IMG/VR virus record: IMGVR_UViG_2684622619_000014
From: a virus
Taxonomy: Duplodnaviria; Heunggongvirae; Uroviricota; Caudoviricetes
DNA: 20,707 nt
Reading direction: 5' to 3' (one strand)
A program made the position numbers. Numbering within the stretch: the stretch's first letter is position 1; each line of letters opens with the position of its first letter. Of this stretch, positions 3,001-6,000 are shown piece by piece.

Positions 3001-6000
3001 CACTTTCTCCTGTAAAGCGGCAATCTGTTCATCCAGCGAGTCTTCACGACCAATATTCATGGCCGCATCCCAGAAACGACTCCACAAATCAGACAGATAC
3101 TTCAGCGTACTGCCAAGCGCATTGAGGTTATTATCAATATCCGCAGTACGCCGACCGGTTTCCTCTGCCAGTGCAGACATGGCTATCCGTGCAGCATCAC
3201 TGGACCGCCCCTGCTCCCCAAGGACGCGTATCTGCTCAAGCTGAGTGGCAGTAAGAAAATGCAGCTCATTGTCCAGAGCCTTCGCGGCATTTACAGGATC
3301 ATCCTTCAGCCGCTTAAACTGATTTATGGTATCGCTGACCGACTGGCCAACCGATCGCTCCATCTGTGCGGCAGCTCTCGCCACCATACCGATATCGTTT
3401 CCACGAAATGCACCACTCCCCACCACCTGAGCCAGCGCACCGGCTGCAGCATGTTGCGTGATACCATTCCCGGAAATAGCACGACTGAGCGTCCACAGCT
3501 GCCCGGCAGTGACTCCGGCATAATGCCCCGTCAGCGACAGCTGGCGGTTAAATTCTTCCCCCTCCTTCTGACCGTCATACCAGGCTTTACCCAGACCATA
3601 GACAGCCGCGGCAATACCGCCAATAACCGCTCCTGGCATCATGCCTTTCGGTGACATCAGTGTGTCTATCCACCCGGCACGGTTAGCCAGCGTTATTCCG
3701 GATCCCCTCAGCGCACCTAAATTGCCGCGGGCCAGTTCACCTATCAGAACGCCTATCTCCTGACGGGCTGCTGCACTTTTCAGACCCAGCGAATGCGTGG
3801 CTTTTCCTGCCTGCTCCATTTTGCGGATATACACTTCTGCAGCACTGCTTACCCCCAGCTGGGCAGCCTTAGCACGAAGCAACTCAGAAGAAGAAAGATT
3901 CTGGCGGGTTGCCTGCTCTTTAAGCTGACGGATAAACGCCACTTTCTGTCGGGTAGCCTCTTCCTCAGCCTGTGTAAGAACACGGGTTTTCGCCGTAACC
4001 TCAGAAATCAGCGCCAGATAATCCTGCTGACCAATCCCGCCACTGTTTCTGGCCTGTCGGATCTGTTGCTGAATACGCTGTAATTCCTGCAGCCCCGCAC
4101 CGGCCTGTTTCACACTGTCAATCTGACGATAAAACGCAGCAGCCGCTTTATCCTGAGCCTCCGCCAGAGCCATGGCCTGCGCCTGTTCCTCGCGCATTTT
4201 CTGGCTCAGTGCCTCCATACGCTGGCGGGTTTGCTCCACCTCGCGGGCCATGCGTTCATGAGCCTGTGCGCTCTTCTCCACCGTCTGCGCATGGACGGAT
4301 GCGGCTGTTGCAGCCGAAGAAGCCGCCTGCATTGTCTGCCGGGCGGCCTGAGTCTGACGCTCCATAAAACGCTGCATACGGGCAGAAGACCGTTCTGCAT
4401 CGCTGGCTGCACCATTCAGAAGGTTTTTGATACGGGGAATTTCATTTTTAAACTCTGCCGCATCAATCCCCAAATCAATGACCAGGTTGGCTATCTGGTC
4501 CATAACGCACACCTCCGGAAATACCTTCCCCAAGATGCATCAGTTCTTCGTCCGTTCGCTCCGGTATCCCGTTCTCTTCCGGTAAAAGGCTGAAATCAGC
4601 CACCGCAGCATCACTGCTACCGGACACCATTCTCACGATCAATGCCTTCAGCGAGGCAAACTGCGCATCCATCCACACATCACTGAAGCTCTGCATCCGG
4701 AAATAATCGCCCCACTCACCAAGCTCAGTGGCCGACATTTCCGACAGCATCCGCCGCCAGTCTGCCCGCCGGAACTCCCGGGCAAGCCGCATGACAAACT
4801 GCATTTCCCGCGTCAGGACTTTTCCGGCGTCAGCACCTCATGCTCCAAATCCCCGGCATTCTCAATGGCTCCCATACCGCTCAGCGACAGAACCATCTCC
4901 GCCCCCGCTCCCAGGGCATCATACGACCATGTTGTAATAACGGATGCGCAAAGCGTCTCAACATCCTGAGACTGTTCCGCATTCCACAGTGAGCGGGAAA
5001 CCAGCCAGGCATTGATATCCATCCCCATCCGCAGAAAAGCAATCTGTCGTTCAGCCTCCGGCAGTTCTCCCTCTTCGGCATCAAACTTTGCCGTTCGCTG
5101 CTGAACAAACGCCAGATATTCAATTCTCTGCAGCCCGGACAGCTCACTGAGCACCACGGACTGCTTTTCATAATTAAACGTGCCCTGTTTCAGAAACATC
5201 ATGTTCTCCACCTGCAAAAAAGCCCCGGATAACCGGGGCAAATGATGAGTATCGTCCTGTTAACCTGCAGCGCTGACAGTCACCGCAGCCACAGCCACAA
5301 AATTCCCGTCAGCGGTCATGCCCACAATGCTGACGCTGCCCTGCTTCACGCCTTTCACCGTGGCCACAAGTCCGTTCAGGGTCACAGTGGCTGTCTGTGG
5401 ATCTGTCGAATGCACACTGATCGCTTTGTCACTGGCTCCGTCAGGTTTTACTGTAAAGGTCAGCGTGGTGGTTGCTCCCACATTGACACTGGCGGATGCC
5501 GGTGCCACCGTCAGCCCGGTAACGCCCACAGTTTCAGTGCCCTCCTCTGCCAGATATGGACGCCCCACACCGCTGATTTTCACTGTGCGGGTCATCACGT
5601 CTTTTGAGGCAATGGTTTTACCCAGTGAGCTCAGCCAGCCGCGGAAAACATCAACAGTGCCGTTGGGATATTTGATACGAAACGCGCAGACTTCACCGGA
5701 GTCGAACAACTGAACCAGTTTTTTCTGCCCGCTGTCACCCGGACGCCAGGCCAGCGTCGCCGAAGTATCACCAACGGATTTCTGCCCCTGGGTTGTCGTT
5801 TTCCAGTCTGCATCTTCATCATCGAGATAAGTGTCATCTTCTGCATCAGCGGTCATTTCGCCAGGTTGCAGATCCTTCACCATCGCAAGACGCAGCCAGT
5901 CAGTGTCCGACAAAGGGTTCGCAAACGCATCGCCGTTGCCGGTATACATCCAGAACGTCGTCCCCGCACCTTTCGTCTTTGCCAGTGGATTTGGCGTGGT

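Follow-up and report, generated by a model that had tools for sequence, protein, structure and literature searches.

A terminator-like hairpin between the tail genes V and G

We analyzed a 20,707-nucleotide stretch of Caudoviricetes DNA from the virus record IMGVR_UViG_2684622619_000014 (this whole stretch is referred to as the window) and focused on an RNA hairpin located between V, the gene for the major tail tube protein, and G, the gene for a tail assembly chaperone. The window is colinear with prophage Sp3 of Escherichia coli O157:H7 Sakai, a defective prophage with integrase, bet, and portal pseudogenes (the first two lying outside the window). Both genes and the hairpin are on the minus strand, and the hairpin, GCCCCGG-UUAU-CCGGGGC followed by six uridines, is present at 5239-5216 exactly as a first-pass annotation of the sequence had given it. 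The same annotation had placed it between V and G, which the Pfam matches of the flanking genes support (Phage_TTP_12 and Big_2 for V, Phage_TAC_2 for G), and V is labelled major tail protein in the records of phage mEp460, phage Ayreon, and Sakai. The gap between the two genes is 57 nucleotides (nt) long and holds the hairpin with its U6 tract. Read along the minus strand, the V stop codon TAA (5262-5260) is followed by a 20-nt spacer, the hairpin, UUUUUU, GCA, GGUGGAG, AAC, and AUG AUG (5202-5197). The coordinates of these and other features are collected in Table 1.

The hairpin has the anatomy of an intrinsic terminator: a stem of 7 G-C pairs and a 4-nt loop, within the range expected for such elements (a GC-rich stem of 5-14 base pairs (bp) and a loop of 3-8 nt), and a U6 tract on the gene strand at 5221-5216. 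There is no A tract upstream of it. The terminator shape exists on the minus (gene) strand only, since what follows the palindrome on the plus strand is AAATGATG. The isolated hairpin folds with -15.0 kcal/mol, and all stem pairs have a probability of at least 0.98 when folded in a 191-nt context. Hairpins of this quality, defined as a perfect 7-bp stem with at least six G-C pairs followed by at least five T in six positions, are rare by chance: across 300 dinucleotide-shuffled versions of the window the expected count was 0.013 per shuffled window, both strands together, and 1% of the shuffled windows contained any such hairpin. A consensus scan of the window ranked the V-G hairpin as its second-best terminator-like site. 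No Rfam family matched at its gathering score anywhere in the window, and in a search extended to an E-value of 10 the best local matches scored 9-16 bits, the thresholds being 41-112.

Over the V-G region, identity is about 98% with phages mEp460, cdtI, Ayreon, and Tritos and 100% with chromosomes of O157:H7 and O55:H7. Of 5426 complete E. coli genomes, 1835 (about a third) contain the 301-nt junction. Among relatives that are 98-100% identical, the most variable intergenic site is position 5228 in the loop-closing pair, for which there are three alleles: C, T (a G·U pair), and G (a mismatch, leaving a 6-bp stem). Variation in the hairpin and its tail is limited to this pair and to the length of the U tract, which ranges from 5 to 7. 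The element is of a known kind, and in near-identical phages it already carries a label as a predicted terminator. The mEp460 record (JQ182728.1) has a 'rho-independent terminator' at 8751-8774 and the Ayreon record (MF807953.1) a 'terminator' feature at 8742-8782, each between the major tail and G genes. Both features are the hairpin described here, at the same position and with about 98% nucleotide identity, mEp460 carrying the G·U variant; they differ from it in that the annotations were made from sequence alone and that the copy in the window sits in a defective prophage. The mEp460 record also has a third 'rho-independent terminator' inside the T frame, equivalent to 4584-4601 on the minus strand of the window, where our scan gave no match.

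Hairpins downstream of V in other phages and prophages

To compare V-G junctions, we gathered 300 loci with V homologues from three scans of viral contigs, one scan with one genome per species, and reference phages, and took the sequence 3' of the V stop codon. Fixed 70-nt segments after the stop were folded singly, and a strong hairpin was called at -9 kcal/mol or better with a start no more than 25 nt from the stop. Such hairpins occur in 73 of 114 distinct V-downstream segments (64%), segments that are related by descent and would more fairly be counted as about 10 to 18 independent lineages, compared with 6.5% of 570 control windows inside V. The junctions fall into two types. Tight junctions of 9-23 nt contain only a Shine-Dalgarno (SD) sequence and are found in lambda (15 nt), phi80 (10 nt), and an Stx2 phage (13 nt), as well as in Proteus, Kosakonia, and Enterobacter prophages; checked as comparators, the lambda, phi80, and Stx2 phage junctions have no hairpin. 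Spaced junctions of 30-60 nt contain one GC-rich hairpin.

We found 18 distinct stem sequences at this position. They include GCCCCGG/CCGGGGC in the window, GCCCCG/CGGGGC in Gifsy-1 and Citrobacter, and CGGGGC/GCCCCG of the Kluyvera type, where the hairpin has a UUCG loop and no U tract, as well as GGCGGGGC/GCCCCGUC, AGGGGGC/GCCCCCU, AAAGCCCC/GGGGCUUU, GGCUCC/GGAGCC, AGCCACAC/GUGUGGCU, and GCCCCAC/GUGGGGC. The versions in the window, Gifsy-1, and Citrobacter retain the stem, with flanks that cannot be aligned to one another. There is one compensatory change, in two loci with 86% V identity (L321 and L325), where the stem reads ACCCCGG...CCGGGGU and a G-C pair at its base has become A-U. The strand on which the hairpins fold best is that of the mRNA: G·U pairs are found in 14 unique hairpin cores folded as the sense strand against 1 folded as antisense (about eight lineages against one), and the fold is stabler by more than 1 kcal/mol as the sense strand in 12 cores and as antisense in 2. 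The loops cUUCGg and GNRA (GAAA, GUGA, GCGA) recur. Neither the G·U bias nor the UUCG and GNRA loops are expected of a palindrome acting at the level of DNA, so the element is one of sense-strand RNA, and on the evidence of these sequence patterns a hairpin in the RNA downstream of V is under selection.

The U tract is less constant than the stem. Counted over the 8 nt past the stem, 10 of the 18 stem types have at least five U, 2 have four, and 6 have three or fewer; in Gifsy-1 the tail has degraded to UUCUAU. Since conservation across lineages does not extend from the hairpin to its U tract, termination as such is not the conserved property, and its dispensability in 6 of 18 stem types points to a function of the hairpin rather than of termination alone. 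U-poor hairpins begin 4-11 nt past the V stop, and U-rich ones mostly 17-20 nt past it, with one clade at 2-3 nt. From the end of the hairpin to the G start there are 12-20 nt in all lineages. The first-pass annotation had proposed a partial terminator or an RNA-stability element that favors V expression; the apparent selection on a sense-strand RNA hairpin fits this idea, and the poor conservation of the U tract (three or fewer U in 8 nt for 6 of 18 stem types) refines it.

Read-through and a possible protected 3' end for V mRNA

The late operon around the hairpin was expected by the first-pass annotation to be transcribed processively, and the gene layout agrees: a Q antiterminator gene lies upstream, and Q and the lysis, head, and tail genes are all co-oriented on the minus strand. 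A consensus scan gave no sigma-70-like promoter site from 16054 to 1018 on the minus strand. The downstream tail genes thus lack a promoter-like site of their own, and polymerases must read through the hairpin for G, T, H, and the more distal tail genes to be expressed. Q-loaded RNA polymerase has a nozzle on its RNA exit channel that blocks terminator hairpins, and it ignores terminators over thousands of base pairs (PMC9388147), so the hairpin would not be an efficient stop in the lytic cycle.

Only two non-coding gaps in the head-tail gene string exceed 30 nt, one of 86 nt after the capsid gene and the V-G gap, and both contain terminator-like hairpins; the capsid protein and V are the two most abundant virion proteins. 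The sister hairpin after the protease-capsid fusion gene has a GNRA loop and is tagged as a rho-independent terminator in mEp460, and a second hairpin without a U tract lies in the same gap just before the SD sequence of the next gene. In lambda (J02459.1 7162-7179; positions 1463-1480 of our lambda locus, L329), the hairpin AUGGCCC-UUCG-GGGCCAU, with a 7-bp stem, begins 2 nt past the stop of capsid gene E and precedes FI. Like the V-G hairpin, it combines a GC stem and a stable tetraloop a few nucleotides past a major structural gene, just before an SD sequence and in a Q-dependent late operon. It differs in following the capsid gene rather than V and in having a U-rich tail without a clean U tract, and the tight V-G gap of lambda is itself hairpin-free. 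A stable stem-loop 3' of a cistron needed in excess, as found here after V and in its sister after the capsid gene, is what would be looked for in a barrier to mRNA decay, as is a structure that is kept on the mRNA strand while its sequence diverges.

We propose that the hairpin gives RNAs ending after V a protected 3' end, by residual termination, by exonuclease trimming, or by both, and thereby favors V over G, T, and H. This is the reading we prefer, and we give it about an even chance of being right. During lytic growth, Q-modified RNA polymerase would transcribe the late operon and keep terminator hairpins from forming in its exit channel, such that most polymerases would go on to transcribe G, T, H, and the other tail genes. 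The hairpin would then fold after the RNA has left the polymerase. Two kinds of RNA would come to end at the GC stem, namely a residual terminated fraction and read-through RNAs that have been cut downstream and trimmed from 3' to 5'. As the stem would halt the exonuclease, the V segment would outlast the G-T-H segment, and the output of the tube protein, of which roughly 200 copies are needed, would be raised relative to the chaperones and the tape measure. What the sequences show is the anatomy of the hairpin, its place in the operon, and selection for a sense-strand RNA hairpin after V; the steps that we infer are the read-through by Q-modified polymerase, the blocking of exonuclease, and the effect on the V:G ratio. 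Precedents exist in other systems: terminator hairpins have been seen to raise the abundance of the mRNA upstream of them (PMC11696848). In the literature on 3'-end or long-read transcriptomes of lambdoid late operons, we found nothing that covers the V-G site; a Term-seq data set exists for Sakai (GSE143631; PMC7547250).

Several points weigh against this proposal. The element is optional, lambda and phi80 working with hairpin-free V-G junctions of 10-15 nt. The comparison fits a decay barrier, a weak terminator, or a translational insulator alike and cannot separate them, and the shared descent of the 114 segments reduces the number of independent cases on which it draws. The Sp3 copy, lying in a defective prophage, may no longer be of consequence there.

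Intercistronic stem-loops that stabilize mRNA include the Rhodobacter pufBA hairpin, the malE-malF repetitive extragenic palindromic (REP) element, and that of papA. In the cip-cel operon, intergenic stem-loops set subunit stoichiometry through selective processing and stabilization (PMC10311766). The V-G hairpin resembles all of these in lying 3' of a cistron needed in excess, in having no need of a U tract, and in its proposed role in stoichiometry. It differs from them in that half-lives were measured and cleavages mapped in those systems, the V-G hairpin being known from its sequence, and it bears no sequence relation to them. The lambdoid terminator tR' and other terminators overridden by Q (PMC9388147) are likewise intrinsic terminators that Q-modified polymerase meets on its way, and a terminated or processed product could, as at the V-G hairpin, remain as a stable RNA. 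The regulatory switch tR' is found directly past pR', and the V-G hairpin some 12 kb further downstream, with structural genes on either side.

A 20-kb phage transcript gives rise to proteins in numbers from a few to hundreds of copies, a range classically credited to translation initiation. If our proposal is true, conserved RNA hairpins behind the genes for the capsid and the tail tube would supply a further layer of control, through mRNA 3' ends or stability, that is effective even under Q antitermination. The gain is modest, as the type of mechanism is textbook knowledge, the element was already annotated as a terminator, and model phages manage without it. What the comparison adds, also modestly, is that the hairpin and not the U tract appears conserved across lambda-type tail modules, which favors a role in RNA 3'-end formation or stability. 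The hairpin is real but ordinary, an element that most likely protects or ends a tail-gene message.

Alternative explanations

The hairpin could instead be a transcriptional attenuator at which a fixed fraction of late polymerases, even Q-modified ones, stop at the stem and U6 such that fewer transcripts reach G, T, and H. We regard this as possible but unlikely. Its anatomy is that of a canonical intrinsic terminator, its nominal terminator score is positive (d = 40.9), at least five U in 8 nt are found for 10 of the 18 stem types, and the stem starts far enough past the V stop (20 nt) to be clear of a terminating ribosome; the terminator annotations in mEp460 and Ayreon agree with such a role. 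T7 offers an experimentally established case in T-phi, a leaky terminator after major capsid gene 10 that is partly read through. T-phi shares with the V-G hairpin its terminator shape, its place directly behind the most abundant structural gene, and the need for partial read-through if downstream virion genes are to be expressed; it differs in acting on T7 RNA polymerase, with no involvement of Q-type antitermination. The use of inefficient terminators by T7 is mentioned in a study that finds weak terminators widespread in the tuning of phage gene expression (10.1101/2022.03.18.484859). Set against attenuation are the termination-deficient state of Q-loaded polymerase, in which hairpin formation is prevented, the lack of a U tract in a third of the homologous hairpins, with the degraded UUCUAU of Gifsy-1 as an example, and the absence of an upstream A tract.

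We assign a small probability to a role confined to lysogeny, in which the hairpin would stop polymerases not modified by Q, whether from spurious initiation or read-in, from entering the tail genes and would play no part in lytic stoichiometry. This would leave unexplained why hairpins in the structural operon occur only right after the capsid and tail-tube genes, and why U-less hairpins have been kept in many lineages. It is nonetheless true that such a hairpin should terminate unmodified polymerase efficiently and that the late regions of a prophage are required to be silent, and a study of Tn916 documents terminators as insulators in mobile elements (PMC11658703).

A structured spacer might also act on translation, uncoupling G initiation from ribosomes leaving V or shaping the G ribosome-binding site, so that G would be translated at a rate of its own, and a lower one. 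In every lineage 12-20 nt separate the end of the hairpin from the G start, with the SD sequence just after the hairpin, which fits this idea, as do the 10-15 nt junctions of hairpin-less phages, which would permit coupling. The first-pass annotation had also suggested an effect on G initiation, for which folding gave no support: the stem ends 9 nt upstream of the SD sequence, whose predicted accessibility is 0.51 in the wild type and 0.43-0.55 with either arm disrupted or the hairpin deleted, and the start is affected as little. GC-rich tetraloop hairpins with U tails are, moreover, more typical of 3'-end elements, and the same architecture is found after the capsid gene. We therefore hold a translational role to be improbable. 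Occlusion of the SD sequence was considered separately and rejected, as the weak long-range helix at this site in the minimum free energy structure of an 86-nt segment is not significant (z = -1.15) and the ensemble accessibility is unchanged. G has tandem ATG codons at 5202 and 5199, of which the mEp460 record uses the first and the Sakai record the second. The second is favored, as G homologues start with M-F-L at its position and its spacing of 6 nt from GGAG is the better one.

A lower probability still attaches to the GC palindrome having no function in expression; it would then either arise from or facilitate recombination where the tube gene meets the chaperone and tape-measure module, or be a neutral remnant. 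The affinities of V and G are discordant among the loci, and in two of them (L002 and L085) identity rises from 92-96% at the V C-terminus to 100% in G with the step exactly at the junction, which suggests that the V-G junction is at times a mosaic joint. Mosaic joints leave the RNA-specific signals unexplained: a role at the level of DNA predicts neither the sense-strand G·U bias (14 against 1), nor the UUCG and GNRA loops, nor 18 unrelated stems at one position. In close relatives, the most divergent part of V is the stretch encoding its C-terminal Ig-like domain (Big_2; 5260-5600, minus strand), with 86-97% identity per 100 nt.

Prophages of pathogenic E. coli encode small RNAs, among them the Pas small RNAs of enteropathogenic and the EcOnc small RNAs of enterohemorrhagic E. 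coli, and StxS derives from tR' (PMC7547250). By analogy with StxS and PasD/EcOnc13, the 3' end of V might be released after induction as a discrete Hfq-binding RNA with trans-acting effects on mRNAs of the host or the phage, a scenario that we think very unlikely. Least probable of all is that the hairpin is simply the terminator of such an RNA: a hairpin with U6 is the usual Hfq-binding 3' module and the same prophage carries PasD/EcOnc13, but the Hfq-crosslinking table for Sakai, made from uninduced cells, has no EcOnc entry at or near the V-G junction, PasB maps elsewhere, no internal promoter-like site was found, and the Rfam matches are far under threshold. Specifically, the crosslinking table has no EcOnc near Sakai 9125xx, and its only Sp3 entries are EcOnc13 and EcOnc32, both in the moron region after Q. 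PasB, which a 2026 preprint places in a phage structural operon, was considered as a candidate for the V-G element and rejected: its published coordinates are antisense, in the I-J gap of PP6 of strain E2348/69, and the window does not contain its probe sequence.

Flanking genes and other features of the window

Table 1. Positions of the V-G hairpin, related hairpins, and annotated genes in the window
Feature	Coordinates	Strand	Evidence and remarks
V-G hairpin, 5' arm GCCCCGG	5239-5233	minus	starts 20 nt past V stop
V-G hairpin, loop UUAU	5232-5229	minus	direct reading
V-G hairpin, 3' arm CCGGGGC	5228-5222	minus	direct reading
U6 tract	5221-5216	minus	adjoins stem; 5-7 U in close relatives
SD sequence of G, GGTGGAG	5212-5206	minus	9 nt past stem
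Sister hairpin GGCCC-GUAA-GGGCU + U run	7656-7637	minus	23 nt past stop of protease-capsid fusion gene; GNRA loop
Second capsid-gap hairpin AGCCCC-UGAAC-GGGGCU	7624-7608	minus	no U tract; just before SD of next gene
H, tape measure	1438-4503	minus	Pfam
T reading frame	4475-4804	minus	Pfam Phage_tail_T and annotation; before tape-measure gene H
G, tail assembly chaperone	4813-5202	minus	Pfam Phage_TAC_2 (2e-39); Sakai ECs_0835
V, major tail tube	5260-6003	minus	Pfam Phage_TTP_12 (1e-66) and Big_2; ECs_0834 homologue; stop TAA 5262-5260
U	6014-6427	minus	Pfam
Z	6412-6990	minus	Pfam
Cement protein	7270-7593	minus	Pfam
ClpP-protease/capsid fusion	7680-9707	minus	Pfam
Portal	10109-11233	minus	Pfam
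Terminase large subunit	11370-13472	minus	Pfam
Terminase small subunit	13472-13963	minus	Pfam
Rz	14778-15257	minus	Pfam
Endolysin	15273-15611	minus	Pfam
Holin	15611-15871	minus	Pfam
252-amino-acid membrane protein	16692-17450	minus	no Pfam match; apparent cargo
Q antiterminator	17619-18308	minus	Pfam Phage_antiter_Q (PF06323; 2e-91); Sakai ECs_0815
LpxR, lipid A deacylase	18783-19742	plus	apparent cargo flanking Q region

In lambda-type phages, the T reading frame extends G by a frameshift. The portal gene of the window (10014-11233, minus strand) is broken into a 374-amino-acid open reading frame and a separate fragment, in keeping with the portal pseudogene of Sakai. It also contains, antisense at 10525-10545 on the plus strand, a perfect 7-bp GC hairpin followed by TTTT, the only other match in the window at the stringency of the V-G hairpin; a further hairpin on the sense strand (10505-10482, minus) adjoins it.

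A run of 50 N at 15300-15349, inside the endolysin gene, takes the place of about 178 nt that are missing or masked, and the mapping of Sakai coordinates onto the window is shifted by 128 nt above about 15300. Beyond this run lies a small RNA of the PasD/EcOnc13 Hfq-binding type, at about 16410-16235 on the minus strand, with a terminator hairpin at 16261-16243 followed by T8; the complement of the PasD northern probe matches 24 of 24 positions at 16274-16251. Of the intergenic regions bound by Hfq in Sakai, the one that holds PasD/EcOnc13, ECs0816-ECs0818, was ranked first. The window also contains both Q and LpxR, the reported companions of PasD. The convergent partner small RNA EcOnc32 (Sakai 901574-901662) is expected, approximately and after the 128-nt offset, at 15971-16059 on the plus strand, where it would overlap the start of a hypothetical open reading frame at 15969-16367.

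Directly after Q, a promoter-like site at 17635-17607 on the minus strand (TTGCAA-17-TATACT) is a candidate pR' by its consensus match, and about 50 nt past it a hairpin with a T run (17573-17552, minus strand), likewise a consensus match, gives the layout expected of a Q-loading/tR' cassette. The gene for the 252-amino-acid membrane protein lies between this candidate pR' and the lysis genes.

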